Virus record (IMG/VR): IMGVR_UViG_2548876950_000015
Coordinates: 1-7,243 of that record
Strand: one strand, 5' to 3'
DNA length: 7,243 nt
From: a virus
Lineage: Duplodnaviria; Heunggongvirae; Uroviricota; Caudoviricetes
Of this stretch, positions 1-7,243 are shown piece after piece (positions within the stretch are counted from its first letter, which is position 1; the number at the start of each line of letters is the position of its first letter). The position numbers and the translations under genes are program-made. Below the pieces are notes generated by a model. The model did not search any database. It saw nothing but the letters and a program-made list of their open reading frames with translations, and had not been told where the DNA came from.

Positions 1-1797
1 TTAGAACTCCTTCACATCTGCGCCAGAAGACACGCTCCAGATCGAAACAGGCGACCCGTTTACACCTATTAACCTTGCTTTCAACCCATTTCCGCTTGCT
101 CTTGGTACGGTTAAATTTGCAGCAGATGGATTCATAGCCCAATCTCCTCCATTTAATATGACACTCATTTCAACTACGCCACCATTATCAATATCTATTA
201 TAGGTGTTTGCACTACCGGGCTTTGTTGATCAATTGGCAGAAAGCCATTGACAATAATAGATGGTCTGAATGATGGGTTTCCCTGAACGCTAACACGAAG
301 TTGCCCACCCTTAACAAATTCTGTTGCACAAGTATTCATGACAATGCAATACGGATTTACAAAATCAAATGCATAGCAAATTGACTCCCCATCCATTGGC
401 GTGCAGTTTTCAGCAGTACAATTGGTCATGGTGGTATATTGCATTCCTGACATTCTAAATGACAACTGGTAACCGTTAACCTGAACAAGGCGCATATCCA
501 TAGAAGTGCCTATTACTTTTATTTGACCATCCCTAAAATCTTCAAATAAAACGCCAGCATATCCTTTCCCTGGATATTGTGGGAAACCGACCATTTCCAT
601 TACGCCAGAGAACGGCACATAAGAGAAGCATCCGATATAAGCACATTCAAAAATTGACTGTCTGATAACTGGTGCTGCTGATTTTCCTAAAAACAGTCCG
701 TAATAATTTCTATAAGAATCTACGTTTTCTTGTGTTAAGCCAAGCCTTCTAAACATGCAGTTTTCAACTCTACCGTTAACACAAAATGAACTCATTGAGT
801 TATCTGTTAGATCCCATTGTTTTGGTATAAAAGCACATAATGCATCCACCTGAAGAATTACTTCTCCATTTTTTGTGAGATCTATTTTGTCATTTGTTGT
901 TTTATAAAAAACTGTCGCTTCAGCCTTTCCCTGTCCTCTAATTCCCATATTGTCATAAATTGGGATTGTTTTTGATGTATTTATGTTTCCAGCAGGAGCC
1001 TCTAGAATGCATTTGTTTGAGCGGGCAAAGTTAGTTGCAAGAGTTATAGCTGTTGCGTTATCTGTGACTCCGTCAGGTTTCACCCCCCAAAATTGCATGT
1101 CGTAAGTGGTAAAATTAATTCGTCTCCATACCATCGTTCCAGTTTCTGGCTTGATTACAATTCCACCATCATCAGCCCACGCCTGAATGTTATCAACAGA
1201 CTCGAAAAAGCCGCCACCAAGGTGGTTTTCAGCATGTGTAGTGCTAGCTGCTGATGCTACGTATACAATCTGCCCTGCCTCCTCCGGAACACAGGAGCGA
1301 AGCTCTGAAAGATTGAGAAAGCGGCCAATAGCGTTAAATCCTGTTTTATCAATTAATGAATCATGTGTAGCTTTCAAGATCTCCAGCTCAATCTTTACGG
1401 TTGTGCCTCCATAACCAACCAGAGATGCGCCATCATGGCCAGAAAGCTCAGCCCTTAACTGATCTGGAGAATATTTCAGTAGATCAGGATAATAGAATTG
1501 TTGTGCACCATACGCATCATACACAGCCATGGAGTGATTCTGTACAGTTACGAACTTGGCAATCTGTCCGTTATATACAGGGTAACCAGCAGCGTTAATG
1601 ATGATTGGTTGCGAAACAGGGACGTGAGAACCATCTTCGTTCTCCACATAAACCTGAATCTGGTTTTCAGGATTTACAGGGTCAGTGTCAATTTTACCAA
1701 TATAAATTTTGCCATTGGCAACCGCTTTAAAAGAACGCGCCATAGTGAAGAGTTGCGAAGGCATCGATACGATCACATTGGCTGTAATGTCTGTCAT
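1..1797 (-). CDS. Tailspike protein: P22 gp9-type head-binding N-terminal domain fused to a divergent receptor-binding domain
   Basis: 598-aa ORF, ATG at 1797-1795 with GGAG about 10 nt upstream, TAA stop at 3-1. The first ~110 residues ([59 protein letters not shown]...KYSPDQ) match, from memory, the conserved head-binding domain of P22 gp9 and the Sf6/HK620 tailspikes. The rest does not resemble the P22 endorhamnosidase body as I recall it. Position after the immI module matches P22 synteny. Confidence 0.88.
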
Positions 1798-1899: not shown

Positions 1900-2790
1900 T
1901 CAGTAGTTATGTACTGAAGGAGGTAATTCTTTATTCTTAAGTCTCATCCATGCGGAACGATTCGTTGGTCCGTCTGGCTCATTAATATCAACATCTAGTG
2001 TGTGATTGATTAAAACGTCTCTCGCTATATCGATAATACGGGAGAACTCATAACCGCAGTCATGACATCTGCCGGAATAGTTCGATTGAATTTGTTTCAG
2101 CGCCGGATACAATTCGCGGAATAATGCCTGTGAGCGGTTGGCATAATCCCATAACCATACAAGGCTGTTTGCTTCTTTTGCAGAAAGCTCGTTGGTTTTC
2201 TTCTCTTGTTTGCCGATAAATTCACCTTCAAGCACTACCCTGTGGATGTACTCTACGGCCAGCGGGATTTGTTCAATTGAAAGTTCATCAATGCTGTCAA
2301 TACCAAAACGCTGATGAACCATATTGTATGCATCGTCATAGCGAAGTCCTTTCTTTCCTACCAGCATGTTTACTGCATCGCGTAGCGGTGTGCGTTCAGC
2401 TACTGAAGTTTTACCGCCAATACTCTTCCTCTCTTGTGTGGCAGTAACCATTGCGTCATATGCACGGATAACCTTCAGCGCAAATGCTGCGCTAATCCAC
2501 ATGGCGTAGGAGTAAACAAGCTCCTTGCACACGTAGGTTCCACCATATCGACCTTTCTTAGAAAGGACGGGATTCTTATTCTGCATATCCGCAGAATTAA
2601 AAATTTCATTAATCAATTCAATAGTTTCATTTCTACGCATGAAGAAAGCTGGCTGATGTTTTTCCTCCTTTCCAGACGCTACATGAAGGTCATTAAGCGA
2701 GTAACGACCCTCTGAATCCATATGAATCTTGACGTCAGAAATGATGATGCTATTAGTGCAATTTACAGTTGACTTTGCTAAGCTTGACAT
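1900..2790 (-). CDS. KilA-N domain antirepressor-like protein
   Basis: The ORF track extends to 2856, but that start is a GTG overlapping the upstream stop. The ATG at 2790-2788 (MSSLAKS...) has a GAGG 10 nt upstream and puts the KilA-N-like motif ([39 protein letters not shown]) near the N-terminus, as is usual for this family. Family call is from motif recollection only. Position after arc corresponds to ant in P22 immI. Confidence 0.62.
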
Positions 2791-2852
2791 ATCAATAATA
2801 CCTCGTAAGTTTTGTTGATACCGAAGCCCTGACTGTTCCCGCAGTTGGGGCT

Positions 2853-3074
2853 TCACTGTTTTTGTAAGTCACTGTAGCTATAAAGCCACTGACCACTCAT
2901 TTTTGATTTGATTGACTCTACTGAGTCACGGCAAGGAATGATTCCGCCTGACATCATTCTGATCTCCGTAAATTCACCACTCCTTATCGATTCAATGCCA
3001 TCAATGTTAACTAAAGATTTACCTCTACCAAGTGCATTCTCATAGCCAATCTCATCAACCTCAATAAACCTCAT
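2853..3074 (-). CDS. Hypothetical 73-aa protein between arc and the antirepressor-like gene
   Basis: ATG at 3074-3072 overlaps the arc TGA stop (ATGA). A GAGGGG sits about 8 nt upstream. TGA stop at 2855-2853. No family recognised. Confidence 0.4.
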
Positions 3075-3229
3075 GCCGTTATCCCCTCTCTCTTCAGGCT
3101 GTCCAACACTCGCTTGTAAATCTCAGAGTTAACAGATCGCCCGTTCTCTTCAGCTACCTTGCGCACCAAATCCAATACTTCTTTAGGCCACCGCAAATTG
3201 AACTGAGGCATTTTTCTTGCACCTTGCAT
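3071..3229 (-). CDS. arc: Arc-like ribbon-helix-helix transcriptional repressor
   Basis: Manual minus-strand translation gives [52 protein letters not shown] (52 aa), near-identical over the core to P22 Arc as I recall it (MKGMSKMPQFNLRWPREVLDLVRKVAEENGRSVNSEIYQRV...). ATG at 3229-3227 with GGAG 6 nt upstream; TGA at 3073-3071. Missing from the ORF track because it is under 60 aa. An in-frame ATG at 3250 would add 7 residues but has no SD. Confidence 0.85.
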   Translation of the reverse strand: MQGARKMPQFNLRWPKEVLDLVRKVAEENGRSVNSEIYKRVLDSLKREGITA

Positions 3230-3322
3230 ATTCAACTCCATTTCACTCATTGATAGTACCGTACTACTATTGAAAGCGTACTACTACCGTTCTAGCATGT
3301 CAACAAATAAAAGGAGAACGAC
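3230..3322. promoter_or_regulatory. Divergent mnt/arc control region with overlapping candidate promoters and operator-like repeats
   Basis: 93-bp interval between divergent arc and mnt. Inverted repeat TAGTAC-c-GTACTA at 3254-3266 inside GATAGTACCGTACTACTAT (3252-3270), whose flanks resemble the P22 arc operator as I recall it (ATGATAGAAGCACTCTACTAT). Direct repeat CGTACTACTA at 3260-3269 and 3277-3286. Candidate rightward promoter: -35 TTGAAA 3270-3275, -10 TAGCAT 3293-3298. Candidate leftward promoter: -35 TTGACA (complement of 3298-3303), -10 TACGCT (complement of 3275-3280). Confidence 0.5.
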
Positions 3323-3565
3323 GTGGCTAGAAATGATCCACAATTCAACGTAAGAATGCCTGATGAGATAAAACAGCAACTTACGCATATTGCTGCAACA
3401 AATCGCCGCTCGATAAACGCAGAGATTATTTCAGCTATCGAACTATGGATAAAAATTCATAAAGGGCAGCTAATACCTTCAAGTAGTCGAATCCTGACAA
3501 AGTCTGAGCAAGAGGCGTTTGATGTAGCTATTGATGTGTTAAAACGTGTAAGAGATGGAGGATAA
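3323..3565 (+). CDS. mnt: Mnt-like ribbon-helix-helix repressor
   Basis: 80-aa ORF with GTG start at 3323 preceded by AAGGAG (3311-3316). N-terminus MARNDPQFNVRMPDEIKQQL...NRRSINAEI resembles P22 Mnt as I recall it (MARDDPHFNFRMPMEVREKL...NGRSMNSEL). Divergent from arc, as in P22 immI. Confidence 0.85.
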   Translation: MARNDPQFNVRMPDEIKQQLTHIAATNRRSINAEIISAIELWIKIHKGQLIPSSSRILTKSEQEAFDVAIDVLKRVRDGG

Positions 3566-3567
3566 CC

Positions 3568-3801
3568 ATGGAGCAACAACAAGGGTCGCCATTATCATTG
3601 ATTATTATGGTGATTTTTTTCGTTTTTATCTTTTTTATACCTGCGTTAAAAATATCCAAAAAGGCCGGCTTTGACTGGAAGATGGCTGTATGTTTAACAA
3701 TCCCTGGCTTTAACGTGGTGGCGTGGCTCGCGCTTGCGTTCATGGATTGGCCAATTCACAAGTATCTACCAAAAGATGTGAATCGTAAGGATGCAAAATG
3801 A
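3568..3801 (+). CDS. Small two-helix membrane protein, co-transcribed with mnt
   Basis: 77-aa ORF. ATG at 3568 lies 2 nt after the mnt stop, with GGAGG (3557-3561) 6 nt upstream. Hydrophobic stretches LSLIIMVIFFVFIFFIPAL and MAVCLTIPGFNVVAWLALAF, basic C-terminal tail. No family recognised. Confidence 0.6.
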   Translation: MEQQQGSPLSLIIMVIFFVFIFFIPALKISKKAGFDWKMAVCLTIPGFNVVAWLALAFMDWPIHKYLPKDVNRKDAK

Positions 3802-4007
3802 ATAAAAAACAGCTTATTAAGTCAAAAACGTCAAGCAAGGAAGAATTAGAGAAGGAGCTAAACTCCCTGAAATATGCTCTGTGTCTGGTTTACTCAAGAC
3901 TGCCAATGGAAGATAAAAACGCCATTTACAATGAAATGATTAGCAGCCTTGATTTTAACGATAGAGACCTAGCATCCCACCTCAACAGCTTCCGCGTCCC
4001 TGAGTAA
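3798..4007 (+). CDS. Hypothetical 69-aa hydrophilic protein, translationally coupled to the upstream membrane protein
   Basis: ATG at 3798 overlaps the upstream TGA stop (ATGA); AAGGA 6 nt upstream. Charged, helix-prone sequence. TAA stop at 4005-4007. Confidence 0.5.
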   Translation: MNKKQLIKSKTSSKEELEKELNSLKYALCLVYSRLPMEDKNAIYNEMISSLDFNDRDLASHLNSFRVPE

Positions 4008-4167
4008 TTCTGTTGCGGATTTGCTTCTTGCGGTGGTTTAAGCTGGAGAGCTTGGCTTCTGCTTCTGATATTTGCGCATCAAGATCTTTAAGCTCAAGAT
4101 CTGAAAGTCGCTGGTCAAGCAGGGTTTGGTTCAACTCAATGTTGTTCAGGCGTTCTTCTATGGTCAT
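3982..4167 (-). CDS. Hypothetical 61-aa coiled-coil-like protein
   Basis: ATG at 4167-4165 with AAGGAG 5 nt upstream. MTIEERLNNIELNQTLLDQRLSDLELKDLDAQISEAEAKLSSLNHRKK has heptad-like Leu/Ile spacing. The longer track ORF begins at a GTG (4215) with no SD. Its 3' end overlaps the 3' end of the 3798-4007 gene by 26 bp. Confidence 0.4.
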   Translation of the reverse strand: MTIEERLNNIELNQTLLDQRLSDLELKDLDAQISEAEAKLSSLNHRKKQIRNRITQGRGSC

Positions 4168-4308
4168 GATTTCTCCTTGTTGAGGTTGATGTGAAACGAT
4201 TGATTGTATACGCACTCTTTTGTTAGCTAGTAGCTTTGCTTAATCGCAAGATAAAGTTTCTGATTAATCCCTAAAAATCAAAAAATAAAGTTAAAACAGG
4301 TACATGAT
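4168..4308. promoter_or_regulatory. AT-rich divergent intergenic region, presumed promoters for the 3982-4167 (-) and 4309-4512 (+) genes
   Basis: 141-bp AT-rich spacer between two divergently oriented small genes, with several TTG-containing hexamers (for example TTGTTA 4220-4225, TTGCTT 4236-4241). I could not pair a convincing -35/-10 by eye. Confidence 0.3.
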
Positions 4309-4512
4309 ATGGAATGGATCATAGGATTTGTTGTTCTTATCTTCATAGCCAGTATGTTTAAACCAAGAAGTTGCGATATCTGTGGTGCTGGATTTAAGAA
4401 AAAGTACTTCACATGGACTATCGATGGAAAGAAACAGCATCTTTGTCCGTACTGCAACAGTAAAATGGAGAGGCGCAACAGCGATAGGCGCTTTAAGGAT
4501 CGATTTGGTTAA
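4309..4512 (+). CDS. Membrane-anchored zinc-ribbon mini-protein (N-terminal TM helix plus CxxC-x23-CxxC)
   Basis: 67-aa ORF MEWIIGFVVLIFIASMFKPRSCDICGAGFKKKYFTWTIDGKKQHLCPYCNSKMERRNSDRRFKDRFG: one hydrophobic helix, then two Cys pairs (CDIC, CPYC), then an Arg/Lys-rich tail. TAA stop at 4510-4512 is followed about 20 nt later by the terminator hairpin. SD is weak. Confidence 0.55.
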   Translation: MEWIIGFVVLIFIASMFKPRSCDICGAGFKKKYFTWTIDGKKQHLCPYCNSKMERRNSDRRFKDRFG

Positions 4513-4530
4513 CCATTTTATCTCCAACAA

Positions 4531-4560
4531 AAAACCCACCTGACGGTGGGTTTCATTTCT
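4531..4560. terminator. Bidirectional rho-independent terminator between convergent genes
   Basis: Hairpin CCCACC-TGAC-GGTGGG (4535-4550). On the minus strand it is followed by TTTTTTGTTGG (strong, serves the lipoprotein gene ending at 4560). On the plus strand it is followed by TTTCATTTCT (weaker, serves the 4309-4512 gene). Confidence 0.7.
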
Positions 4561-4979
4561 TAATCTTGCTTTGTAGACGGTATAAGGGATGCGTTTGCCT
4601 CTTTTGGCTTCAAGGTATACATCCCACCATTAAATGGATCAACAGCAAGCCAACCAATTAACCCACCAAACACAAGGTTTCCACCAATATACCAACCATT
4701 AGCATTGGCTTTGATTGGCAGGGTAACTGGTTCGTACCCATCCTTTTCCATAGTGATCTGGTAACTCTTTTTGCCAAAATAACTACCATCTGACTTGGCA
4801 AGAGTTACTCCTTGTGGGGTCTTACCTTGCGCAACAATCACGCCTGATTCGTCTTTTACCTTAAAGCTCGCACCGGAAGGATTGCTGTTCACTTGCACAA
4901 GCTGTGTTTCGTCACCAACAATAGTTGCGCACCCAGATAACATGATAGCGCCAGCAACGACGCCAATAATCCTCTTCAT
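4560..4979 (-). CDS. Lipoprotein with a PEGA-like beta-rich domain and a Gly-rich C-terminal segment
   Basis: Signal peptide with lipobox: MKRIIGVVAGAIMLSGC. The track ORF starts 4 codons earlier (ATG 4991, MEID...) with no SD; ATG at 4979 gives the canonical lipoprotein N-terminus. The mature region (NSNPSGASFKVKD...GKTP...ITMEKDGYEP) resembles a PEGA-type fold by motif recollection. C-terminus GWYIGGNLVFGGLIGWLAVDP is Gly-zipper-like. TAA stop at 4562-4560, then the strong terminator. Confidence 0.7.
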   Translation of the reverse strand: MKRIIGVVAGAIMLSGCATIVGDETQLVQVNSNPSGASFKVKDESGVIVAQGKTPQGVTLAKSDGSYFGKKSYQITMEKDGYEPVTLPIKANANGWYIGGNLVFGGLIGWLAVDPFNGGMYTLKPKEANASLIPSTKQD

Positions 4980-5074
4980 ATCAATTTCCATATCTAAAAA
5001 ACCGGAAACATCCTAATGACAAACCATTCAAATGTGAAGCACGAGATAAGATCAATCCATCCGTGGACGACTAA

Positions 5075-7243
5075 TTACTCCTGTGTCATTCCGCTTAGCG
5101 ATGCCACAATCCCAGCCCTCGACAAACGCTGGAACTCTTCGTTTCCTAGTGCATCGCGAATTGCTTTTACGGCGGCCTTATTTGCCATAAATCTGCGTTC
5201 CGCCGCCGCTAATGCGCCATCACTTGCCCCAACCTTAACTGCCTTTGTTGCCTCTTGAACAGCCTTTTCAATAGCGTAACGACCACTTCTGGTTGCGGAT
5301 AATTTCGCTATCGATCCTTTTGCTATCGCATCAATTGCTCCACCAGCAGCGCCACCCACTATTGCTCCAATAACACCTCCTCCAGAGAACCCTGCGATAG
5401 CGCCAGCGGTTGGAAAAGCGCCAGACAATACGCTCTCTAAAACTGGATGAAGGCCATTCTCAAGAGTGCTAATGGCTGGCATAGAGCGCCCTGTTTGTTC
5501 AACATATCGAAGTGGCTTTGTTGCAGCTCTTGCAAGTTCTCCGTATGAACTTGTAATCCTGCCAAGTTCTGGAGAATATCGACTAATTGCCTTCACGTTT
5601 TGTGGGGTAAGAATAGTCGCGATATGCTTAATTCCAGCTCCTTCAGACTTACCTCCGCGTACCCCTTGCGATACCGCATCTTGTAATATTGATGCAATTG
5701 CTGGCGCGCGTTCCGACTCAGGTAGGGCGCTTATTATTTTATGGAACTGACCTGTTCCACTTTTTGCTGAACCCTGTAACGCCTTAGATCCATTAGTTAC
5801 CAACTGATCAGTTGCAAGGTCTCTACCAAACGCTGCTTCAGCCTGTTCTTGTGCTGTAAATCTTGCCTTTGACAGATCATTAGCTTTTTGCCAGTCATCA
5901 AGAAAATCGCCATTTTGAGCCATTATGCGCATATCTTCCGTTGCTGCATCACGAAGCTCAGCCATGCGCCTTGCCGTATTTGCCTCACCAGACCTTATAT
6001 ACTTCTGCTCTGCGTCAGCAAGTTTACTTCGCCATGCCTTCATGGCATCAAACGTGATTCCTTTTTTACCAGTTTTAGCATAAGCAGATGCGAATTGTTT
6101 CATCTCAGGAGTTAGCGGCATGCCAGCCAAAATATCACCCTGAATTGTAGCGTTCAGGTTTGACATTCTGGCCTTTGCGTCAGGCATCGTGGAGCGGACG
6201 CTATCCCATGCGGCCTTTTCTGAATTTTTCATTTTATCAATACTTGCCAAAACCCTTTGTTTTATGGCTGCACTTTTTTCTGATGCAGTTCCTGCTTCAG
6301 CCCCAAACTCATCCAATGCTGAGTTAAATTTCGACTCTATTTCACTGAATGCTTTGGTGTGTGCATCCTGTGTAATTCCGGGCTTTGATGCCAGAATCCC
6401 CTCCGCCTGAGCAAGACCACGACTACCTGATCTCATGCCAGGAGTTAATGCGTTGATATCTATTCCAGCAGTATCTGCTGCTTTTGCTATTTCGTCTGAC
6501 ACATTAGCTGACTGTCTGGCAATAATCTCTCTTCCTGTACCAGACTTTGCCATTTTCGAAACATCAGCAGCGGAATTTATTGCCCCGCCACCAAGAACTT
6601 GAGGTGATTTAGAGGTTAAGATCCTTCCAGCCCCAGAAAGTATCCCCTGAGCACCAATATTGATACCACCGTTAATGGCAGCATTTTGTGCAAAGTCGCC
6701 CTCCTGATTTGCAGCATCAGCAAGAGAACCTGCAATCATGTTTCCTGCGGAACCGATATCTCCAGCGAGCTTTGCTGGCGCTCCAGCAGCTTTTGCCGCT
6801 GTGCCAATTGGCAGGAGATACCCACCAATTGTTTCACCGGCTTGCGCGTAAGGGTCTGTCGGTCGATCGACAGGGCGATAAACATCATCCAAAACCTTGG
6901 GGCCGCCAAGCCCCTGGCTGATTGCATTAATCAGACTTGCGCCACCCTGCAATACGTCAAATGGTATGTTTACCAGACCACGACCAGCCTGTTCTGCAAT
7001 TTGCCCTGCACTTTGACCACCTGTGAGCCAATCACCAGCTTGTTGCATCAATGATGGTTCTTCTTTCTGCTGCTGAGGCGGAGGGTATGCTGCATAAAAC
7101 TGATCTCTTGCTTCAGCCCATTTGTCACCAGCCTTAGGGGCAACAACCTCATCAAAATATTGCGCTTGAGCCTGTGCTTTCTGTTCTTCAGTTAACGCCT
7201 GATACTGTGGAGAAGCGATAACATCTTTCCATGCTTTAGCCAT
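5075..7243 (-). CDS. Phage DNA-ejection / DNA-transfer protein (P22 gp16/gp20-like by position and composition)
   Basis: 722-aa ORF; ATG at the window edge (7243-7241), so the true N-terminus may lie outside the window. TAA stop at 5077-5075. Ala/Gly/Gln-rich, low-complexity and helix-prone, with a Gly-zipper segment ([31 protein letters not shown]) near the C-terminus. It sits on the distal side of the accessory island, where P22 has gene 16. Product assignment is by synteny and composition, not by remembered sequence identity. Confidence 0.6.

Follow-up and report, generated by a model that had tools for sequence, protein, structure and literature searches.

The window, that is, the whole stretch of DNA analysed here (7,243 nucleotides), is the "ant moron" (sieA-immI region), a variable part of a P22-like (Lederbergvirus) Escherichia coli prophage. 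A prophage in the chromosome of E. coli Z1323CEC0019, in which the orf61 CDS is annotated, matches the window at 100%, and partial matches were found in the Lederbergvirus phages Emek (Salmonella) and Kapi1 (E. coli). The name "ant moron" was given by Villafane et al. (2008, PMC2629481) to the interval between genes 16 and 9 of P22-like phages, the gene content of which is in rapid flux; in P22, RNA polymerase initiated at PLate crosses this interval into the tailspike gene (PMC2629481). As late transcription passes through the region toward the tailspike, the minus strand of the window is the late-operon strand. The following features were identified in the window:

1 to 1797, minus strand: tailspike gene with the P22 head-binding N-terminus (from annotation)
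1900 to 2856, minus strand: ant
2792 to 2857, plus strand: sar antisense RNA of the immI region (Rfam RF00262, 61.7 bits, E 2.9e-11)
between ant/sar and arc in gene order, minus strand: orf73
3071 to 3250, minus strand: arc
3270 to 3298, plus strand: candidate Pmnt-like sigma-70 promoter, TTGAAA-17-TAGCAT (a consensus match only)
3323 to 3565, plus strand: mnt, a ribbon-helix-helix repressor of the Arc/Mnt family (Pfam Arc, E 1.8e-12; mnt in Emek)
3568 to 3801, plus strand: orf77, a small hydrophobic (membrane-like) protein, phrog_32536, overlapping orf69 by ATGA
3798 to 4007, plus strand: orf69, a 69-aa three-helix protein, phrog_16466, WP_016049822.1
3982 to 4007, both strands: tail-to-tail overlap of orf61 and orf69, 26 bp
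3982 to 4167, minus strand: orf61, a protein-coding gene of 61 aa, WP_000151196.1, phrog_7586
4173 to 4178, minus strand: Shine-Dalgarno sequence AAGGAG of orf61
4179 to 4528: context-specific insertion between the terminator and the orf61 Shine-Dalgarno sequence (from comparison of upstream flanks)
4186 to 4221, plus strand: short 5' remnant of another plus-strand gene, within the insertion
4309 to 4512, plus strand: orf67, within the insertion
4529 to 4553, minus (late) strand: intrinsic terminator, AAACCCACC-GUCA-GGUGGGUUU followed by U6
4560 to 4991, minus strand: orf143, lipoprotein-like, phrog_6823
5075 to 7243, minus strand: gene encoding a gene 16-type ejection (DNA transfer) protein (PF26808, Phage_P22_gp16, in relatives)

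The gene 16-type gene is the final core gene of the late operon ahead of the ant moron. At the other end of the region the tailspike gene would, by analogy with P22 (PMC2629481), be the endpoint of the late transcription that runs through orf61 and antisense to the mnt operon. Between them, orf143 has a promoter-like site of its own (5038-5010) and is followed by the terminator at 4529-4553, and therefore shows the classic moron layout; such late-strand morons may occur upstream of orf61. The gene orf67 was found in 12 of the collected orf61 loci. On the opposite strand, mnt, orf77 and orf69 are separated by gaps or overlaps of 2-4 nt, and the placement of the Pmnt-like site agrees with the Pmnt/Pant arrangement of P22. 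With this spacing and promoter, orf69 is likely the last gene of the mnt operon, to which the first-pass annotation of the window had assigned it.

The same annotation had described orf61 as a 61-aa ORF with a strong Shine-Dalgarno sequence, and this description stood. The gene is read on the minus strand from an ATG (4167-4165) through 61 sense codons to a TGA stop (3984-3982), and its AAGGAG (4178-4173) is separated from the ATG by a spacer of 5 nt (AAATC). A Shine-Dalgarno-like purine run (AAGGAG, TAAGG, AGGA or AGAGG) is present in every upstream context of orf61. A 77-aa version starting at GTG 4215 appears in the mechanical list of ORFs; it was rejected, since the extension is unconserved in any other context, and ATG 4167 is therefore the start. 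The RefSeq CDS corresponds exactly to the 61-aa form (WP_000151196.1, hypothetical protein; annotated in NZ_CP148401). The gene is identical with orf61 of phage Emek, where it is called "hypothetical", and in Kapi1 it forms the core of a longer call, Kapi1_061. The PHROG profile phrog_7586, also "hypothetical", matched positions 1-61 of 61 (E 3.3e-44); by this full-length match and the identical public sequence, orf61 belongs to the PHROG 7586 / WP_000151196.1 family. N-terminally extended versions of 89-92 aa, to which PGAP gives the name "hemolysin XhlA family protein", are artefacts of particular upstream contexts. Some gene callers skip orf61 altogether; it is uncalled in three of the five complete diverged loci.

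Since the window contains 69 ORFs of at least 30 aa, a length of 61 codons is by itself within chance, and the coding status of orf61 was assessed from its substitution pattern. The set comprised 68 copies from IMG/VR contigs, assemblies and phage records; a scan of viral contigs with the orf61 alignment yielded 62 loci, and no locus was confirmed by the scan of genome contigs. Among the 68 loci there are 49-50 distinct coding sequences, all of them open, about 28 of which give an identical protein, and the sole exception at the start codon (ATG to ACG) has an in-frame upstream ATG. The homologues of orf61, 42 in number, are 67-98% identical. Variable sites are found at codon positions 1, 2 and 3 in 23, 21 and 45 cases, respectively. 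In the orf61 frame (codons 1-53) pN/pS is 0.10, and 0.14 when six diverged lineages with 75-80% protein identity, one of them a Serratia prophage, are added; the antisense frame with shared wobble positions has a value of 0.30, and the remaining frames have 0.87-3.9. The gene orf61 is thus a genuine protein-coding gene under purifying selection. The first-pass annotation had also considered that the antisense transcript might be non-coding and its ORF incidental; as pN/pS is about 0.1 in the orf61 frame only (0.10-0.14 vs 0.3-3.9 in the five other frames), this reading was rejected. An antisense ORF of 56 aa (4013-4183, plus strand) was likewise discarded, no antisense frame being constrained beyond the frame artefact.

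The order gene 16, orf61, mnt/arc is retained in all loci, and orf61 is everywhere co-directional with genes 7, 20, 16, arc, ant and the tailspike gene. By both strand and location, within the run from gene 16 to gene 9, it is placed as a gene of a P22-type late operon, and its neighbours on the mnt side (mnt and cargo genes; sieA in some relatives) occupy the opposite, prophage-expressed strand. The flanks of orf61 fall into at least 15 unrelated clusters upstream and at least seven downstream, and homology to the window ends together with the gene, within a few bases of the Shine-Dalgarno sequence on one side and of the stop codon on the other. By these joints, orf61 is a conserved anchor within a mosaic, in contrast to the remainder of the ant moron. 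P22 has no homologue of orf61, the equivalent slot being occupied by an unrelated ORF of 125 aa; no sequence relative was found in P22, HK620, Sf6 or epsilon34, and a tblastn search of 50,697 phage records gave orf61 matches only in Emek, Kapi1 and S.Kent 1-2-1. Such absence from P22 and from most phage records is the pattern of presence and absence among syntenic relatives that is expected of a moron.

The same mosaic structure could be read in another way, namely that the segment has been conserved as DNA or RNA, either as a recombination linker or as a spacer or 3' region of a Pmnt transcript leading to sieA or orf67, with the ORF being incidental. Mosaic joints do occur at both ends of the segment, two copies of orf61 bracket an insertion in locus L005, and truncated and fused variants exist (P0035-P0042). 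Moreover, in two loci (L071 and L004) sieA starts on the other strand about 25 nt from the orf61 ATG, and no convincing sieA promoter was found there within the antisense of orf61; therefore, Pmnt transcripts may run antisense through orf61 into sieA in some relatives, and in the window they could likewise run into orf67. However, substitutions are concentrated at the third codon positions of orf61, with the low pN/pS confined to that frame, and the ORF, its length of 61 aa and its Shine-Dalgarno sequence are retained at 72-80% identity (Serratia, metagenomes). This codon-level pattern already largely refutes conservation of the segment as mere DNA or RNA, a reading that we regard as very improbable.

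The terminator upstream of orf61 bears on how the gene is expressed. The hairpin at 4529-4553 has a folding energy of -16.4 kcal/mol (z -3.4 vs shuffles), and its plus-strand reading is a weaker terminator-like structure. In 22 of the 68 loci only 13 or 32 nt separate the T-run of the same hairpin from the orf61 ATG (GGGTTTTTTATAAGGAGAAATCATG). The terminator adjoins the orf61 Shine-Dalgarno sequence behind six or more upstream sequences that are unrelated to one another, so that terminator, Shine-Dalgarno sequence and orf61 form the conserved unit; in the window, a cassette of about 350 bp with the oppositely directed orf67 appears to have been inserted between the hairpin and the Shine-Dalgarno sequence. 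Transcription starting within 4168-4308 had been envisaged in the first-pass annotation. This stretch turned out to be part of the context-specific insertion, and a consensus scan, which is weak evidence, revealed no usable sigma-70 site in it. One weak promoter-like site was found 150 nt upstream of orf61 in L071. A moron in the sense of Hendrix and Juhala is an insert that is expressed independently, from a promoter of its own and up to a terminator of its own; for orf61 neither an upstream promoter nor a downstream terminator was found, again by the weak evidence of a consensus scan.

Given that no promoter travels with the gene and that the terminator touches its Shine-Dalgarno sequence in many relatives, orf61 is most likely reached only by antiterminated late transcription, as far as the anatomy of the locus and the analogy with P22 indicate. 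Polymerase modified by a late antiterminator (Q/gp23-type) would read through from the late promoter toward the tailspike gene, transcribing orf61 on its way, and orf61 would be translated from its own strong Shine-Dalgarno sequence. The terminator itself might be there mainly for the upstream moron, or for the opposite strand.

A different possibility is that orf61 is a moron expressed in the prophage, with a function in exclusion, defence or lysogenic conversion, from its own promoter or that of a neighbouring divergent gene. The ant moron is full of such cargo (sieA, mnt, lipoproteins). Where the context is of the Kapi1 or sieA type, the upstream neighbour of orf61 is a divergent gene instead of a terminator, so that a local promoter could be hidden inside that gene. 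Elsewhere the anatomy speaks against such expression: the T-run close to the ATG in 22 of 68 loci leaves no room for a promoter, the window shows no promoter-like site serving orf61, and no promoter is conserved together with orf61, since homology ends at its Shine-Dalgarno sequence. Besides, orf61 is on the late-operon strand, opposite to the cargo that is demonstrably of the prophage type. In RNA-seq of a Kapi1 lysogen mnt was undetected, and Kapi1_061 and Kapi1_062 are absent from the list of undetected genes (PMC12922286); Kapi1 cultures, however, spontaneously release about 1e8 PFU/ml (PMC8787464), so that detection of late genes in lysogen cultures is to be expected. The non-listing of Kapi1_061 is compatible with lysogenic expression and equally with spontaneous induction. 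On balance, expression of orf61 as a prophage moron is doubtful. The toxicity of Kapi1 delta-hyp19 constructs could be assigned to no gene.

The 26-bp convergent overlap of orf61 with the 69-aa gene (3982-4007), and the lack of a terminator between the two, were both reported in the first-pass annotation and were both confirmed; the scan of 3400-4530 revealed no terminator-like site on either strand. The partner, orf69, is a real gene as well (pN/pS 0.16). Within the overlap, orf69 encodes its C-terminus ...LNSFRVPE* and orf61 encodes ...TQGRGSC*. Identical 26-bp geometry was found in six diverged lineages (the Serratia locus L003 and L070-L074).

The wobble position of either gene is the second codon position of the other, so both cannot drift freely in the overlap, and the constraint proved to be asymmetric: pN/pS of the overlap is 0.12 in the orf69 frame vs 1.19 in the orf61 frame. 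The orf69 C-terminus HLNSFR(V/I)PE is nearly invariant, and the tail of orf61 varies freely (QGRGSC, QGCGSC, QGRESC, RGCESC, QVRGSC, etc.). Natural 58-aa variants of orf61 without the tail exist, and the predicted structure loses confidence at the C-terminus (pLDDT down to 58). The overlap is probably tolerated because the last eight or so residues of orf61 are dispensable. Judging from these comparisons, it is best seen as inherited tight packing in an old orf69-orf61 module, at the point where the late unit would meet the Pmnt operon.

The first-pass annotation had gone further and suggested that the overlap might couple expression of orf61 to that of the mnt operon, by transcriptional interference or by a 3' antisense duplex. 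No specific support for such coupling was found. Late and Pmnt transcription are certainly opposed, but along all 0.7 kb of the mnt operon, and likewise in P22, which lacks orf61; the antisense relation thus extends over the entire mnt operon (PMC2629481) and is not peculiar to the overlap. About 40% of orf61 carriers have no orf69. Four other downstream contexts exist, and where orf61 occurs alone it is followed by other cargo genes that converge on it from the mnt operon. Only the orf69 frame is constrained in the overlap. RNA folding shows no advantage of the overlap region over shuffles (z -1.4 and 0.05). Synonymous divergence in the rest of orf61 and orf69 is ordinary (pS 0.20-0.30), and therefore gives no sign of RNA-duplex selection.

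These observations also bear on the proposal that orf61 and orf69 form a cassette, a strong form of the idea in the first-pass annotation. In such a cassette the overlap (through convergent transcription or a 3' duplex), or binding between the two helical proteins, would keep late-expressed orf61 and prophage-expressed orf69 from being active together, as a lysis/lysogeny toggle or a toxin-antitoxin-like pair. Several features would suit a cassette. First, orf69 never occurs without orf61, and always with the same 26-bp overlap, in 46 loci with an intact pair and in the five complete diverged loci (a sixth, L075, stops inside orf61). Second, the two proteins co-diverge, orf61 being 75-80% and orf69 78-83% identical in the same lineages, and the overlap remains exactly 26 bp in all six lineages. 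Third, there is no terminator between them. Finally, locus L004 keeps, beside orf61, a remnant of 23 C-terminal codons of orf69 with its own Shine-Dalgarno sequence. However, orf61 is solitary in many lineages, and 130 of 5426 complete E. coli genomes carry it vs 74 for orf69. The one-sided conservation of the overlap and the ordinary pS argue against a selected duplex, opposition to late transcription would exist without the overlap, and neither protein resembles a toxin or an antitoxin. A dedicated orf61-orf69 pair is therefore unlikely.

About as weak a case, or slightly weaker, can be made for orf61 as a switch embedded antisense in the Pmnt operon (mnt, cargo, orf61, sieA or orf67), acting at the handover from prophage to lytic growth and tuning the flux of tailspike-bound polymerase. 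If so, the operon transcript of the lysogen would mask orf61. Once the prophage is induced, antiterminated late transcription crossing orf61 would silence mnt and orf69 along with the exclusion and cargo genes, and the coiled coil encoded by orf61 might, in addition, neutralise a cargo protein such as orf69.

As for the orf61 protein, the first-pass annotation had noticed a heptad-like pattern of Leu and Ile, and the pattern held up. Heptad runs of Leu/Ile span residues 3-24 and about 25-54, with a break of register at about residues 24-26; the enrichment of Leu/Ile at a/d positions of residues 25-52 was equalled by 15 of 5000 shuffles. AlphaFold2 predicted a single helix over residues 3-59 with a mean pLDDT of 94. 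The protein thus combines the long helix and the a/d periodicity of a coiled coil. Its net charge is -6 over residues 1-44 and +6 over residues 45-61; the predicted amphipathic helix, of 7 kDa, is thus acidic in its N-terminal two-thirds and basic in its C-terminal tail. Composition and predicted structure suggest that orf61 most likely self-associates as a coiled coil and, in lytic growth, would bind to another protein (or to a nucleic acid).

Homology searches added little to this picture. All matches of orf61 in Pfam, NCBIfam and PADLOC were sub-threshold coiled-coil noise (XhlA, DUF3847, MscS_porin, SMC-like, PbeC, JetC), and the sequence-profile search of PDB returned only noise of the leucine-zipper type (HY5, E 0.012; KCNQ1; M protein). 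Among 1.84 billion representative proteins, only the orf61 family and one repeat protein (E 4e-4) were recovered by a profile search. The orf61 family is narrow and enterobacterial. Foldseek found no match for orf61 in BFVD and none for orf69 in PDB. The predicted structure of orf69 is that of a small polar three-helix protein, and no relatives of known kind were found for it. Toxin-like or antitoxin-like features were seen in neither orf61 nor orf69, and neither had a match above noise in Pfam, NCBIfam or PADLOC.

Taken together, our analysis favours, with a probability of roughly 0.6, orf61 as an accessory gene of the ant moron that is expressed late by antitermination and encodes a coiled-coil product, its overlap with orf69 being inherited packing. 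We infer the dependence of expression on late antitermination, the coiled-coil oligomerisation and the protein-binding role. In more general terms, orf61 is an ordinary, already annotated, uncharacterised accessory gene of a known variable region in P22-like prophages, and the overlap is real and old, with no evidence that would make it a regulatory device. What has been gained is proof of the coding status of orf61 and its correct start codon, a layout of terminator and Shine-Dalgarno sequence that points to late, antitermination-dependent expression, and the asymmetric constraint in the overlap. A short overlapping ORF that some gene callers skip is thus a strongly constrained gene. Nothing here contradicts current understanding, and the importance of the findings beyond housekeeping is small; the role of orf61, if worked out, would add to the knowledge of how P22-like phages manage opposing prophage and late transcription toward the tailspike gene.

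Among known systems, the XhlA family (PF10779) offers a superficial likeness, as orf61 is also a small phage protein with an N-terminal coiled-coil-like helix and gives a weak match over residues 3-53. Membership was rejected, the score being 14.1 bits vs the gathering cut-off of 34.7, with no NCBIfam match. Proteins of the XhlA family have a C-terminal membrane-spanning segment; orf61 has no hydrophobic membrane segment, and its C-terminus is basic and polar (HRKKQIRNRITQGRGSC). An extension of orf61 with a hydrophobic patch occurs in one upstream context only and is unconserved.

Convergent type I toxin-antitoxin pairs with overlapping 3' ends are known from prophages of Bacillus, such as txpA/RatA and bsrG/SR4. 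The orf61/orf69 pair is similar in that two convergent units overlap at their 3' ends within an accessory region of a prophage. However, a type I pair is made up of a non-coding RNA and a small hydrophobic toxin, whereas orf61 and orf69 are both coding, under purifying selection, and specify polar helical proteins with no sign of selection for RNA pairing; this assignment was rejected as well.

Expression of the P22 tailspike, as Berget, Poteete and Sauer are said to have found in 1983 (reference 76 of PMC2629481), is controlled by termination and antitermination in the late operon. The position of orf61 is comparable, on the late strand directly behind an intrinsic terminator, where it would be reached only by antiterminated PLate transcription running antisense to mnt. 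In P22 the terminator lies after ant, not before mnt, and for orf61 such control is suggested by anatomy only.

A further counterpart is the P22 ant moron itself (sieA, hkcC, orf59a and mnt-arc-sar-ant; PMC2629481), which occupies the same slot as orf61, from gene 16 to the tailspike gene 9. Like the window, it mixes small genes of the prophage strand and of the late strand and is in high flux, and the window shares with it mnt, arc, ant and sar. From the genes of the P22 ant moron, among which it has no relative, orf61 differs in being a conserved anchor across many contexts.

In the 58-aa E. coli protein P0040, residues 1-28 of orf61 (61 aa, late-operon strand) are joined in frame to the C-terminal ~30 residues of Ant (ending ...PPSVHNY); this is a natural deletion, in which orf69 (the 69-aa last gene of the mnt operon), mnt, arc and most of ant have been lost. 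In locus L005, a Salmonella prophage, orf61 is present twice, at 5001-5177 (58 aa, 72% identity) and at 6983-7168 (61 aa, 98% identity), and the copies flank an insert of ~1.8 kb that includes a gene for a SocA_Panacea-domain protein. Two copies bracketing an insert suggest that orf61 can act as an anchor for recombination when cargo is exchanged. In two further loci, L004 and L044, pieces of the orf69 C-terminus persist beside orf61, while the rest of the gene is gone:

L004 5164-5235, minus strand: C-terminal remnant of orf69, a 23-codon ORF (MSNRFKISDKDLASHLNRFRAPE) located after mnt and preceded by its own AAGGAGG.
L044 4161-4316, minus strand: orf69 remnant, a 51-aa chimera with the C-terminal end NRFRAPE.

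Upstream of orf61, two features of the window were recorded:

4186-4221, plus strand: 11-codon remnant (GTG AAA CGA TTG ATT ...) left from the 5' part of a gene that runs divergently.
4309-4512, plus strand: orf67, a 67-aa ORF inside the context-specific insertion at 4179-4528.

The counterpart of the remnant in L051-type loci continues as an open frame (VKRLIASMFLF...); the remnant shows the upstream flank in the window to be a derivative, formed by deletion or insertion. The orf67 product has a hydrophobic N-terminal segment and a CxxC...CxxC zinc-ribbon pattern, and its database matches are weak only (Zn-ribbon and Lar-like). The ORF, which lacks a PGAP annotation in the source genome, was found in 12 other loci with 98-100% identity; its position is past the end of the mnt operon, whose strand it shares, and a terminator-like hairpin follows it.

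Beyond mnt and arc, on the side away from orf61, lie:

2792-2857, plus strand: sar antisense RNA (P22 immI region), which matches Rfam RF00262 with 61.7 bits, E 2.9e-11.
1900-2856, minus strand: ant ORF as listed (GTG start, 318 aa).

sar reaches into two genes, overlapping ant at its start region and orf73 at its end. The PGAP version of ant is shorter (296 aa) and is named 'P22AR C-terminal domain' protein, and ant of the Salmonella phage Emek was marked as possibly defective by its annotators. The N-terminal domain of the antirepressor may be altered in this lineage.

In Kapi1, a Lederbergvirus of E. coli, orf61 is contained in Kapi1_061. The authors of this phage did not succeed in deleting 'hyp19', and constructs that carried the flanks of hyp19 proved toxic to non-lysogens and led to loss of the prophage (PMC8787464). 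The region concerned is:

L069 30414-33387: Kapi1, putative hyp19 region.

Counting genes points to Kapi1_058 (gene 16-like) as the probable hyp19; if so, the flanks could include Kapi1_059-061.

In P22 itself, the slot held elsewhere by orf61 is filled by another late-strand ORF, unannotated in its record:

L006 (P22, BK000583) 2850-3227, plus strand: 125-aa ORF with an HExxH motif (AHECAHM).

This ORF probably corresponds to the 'hkcC' named in PMC2629481.
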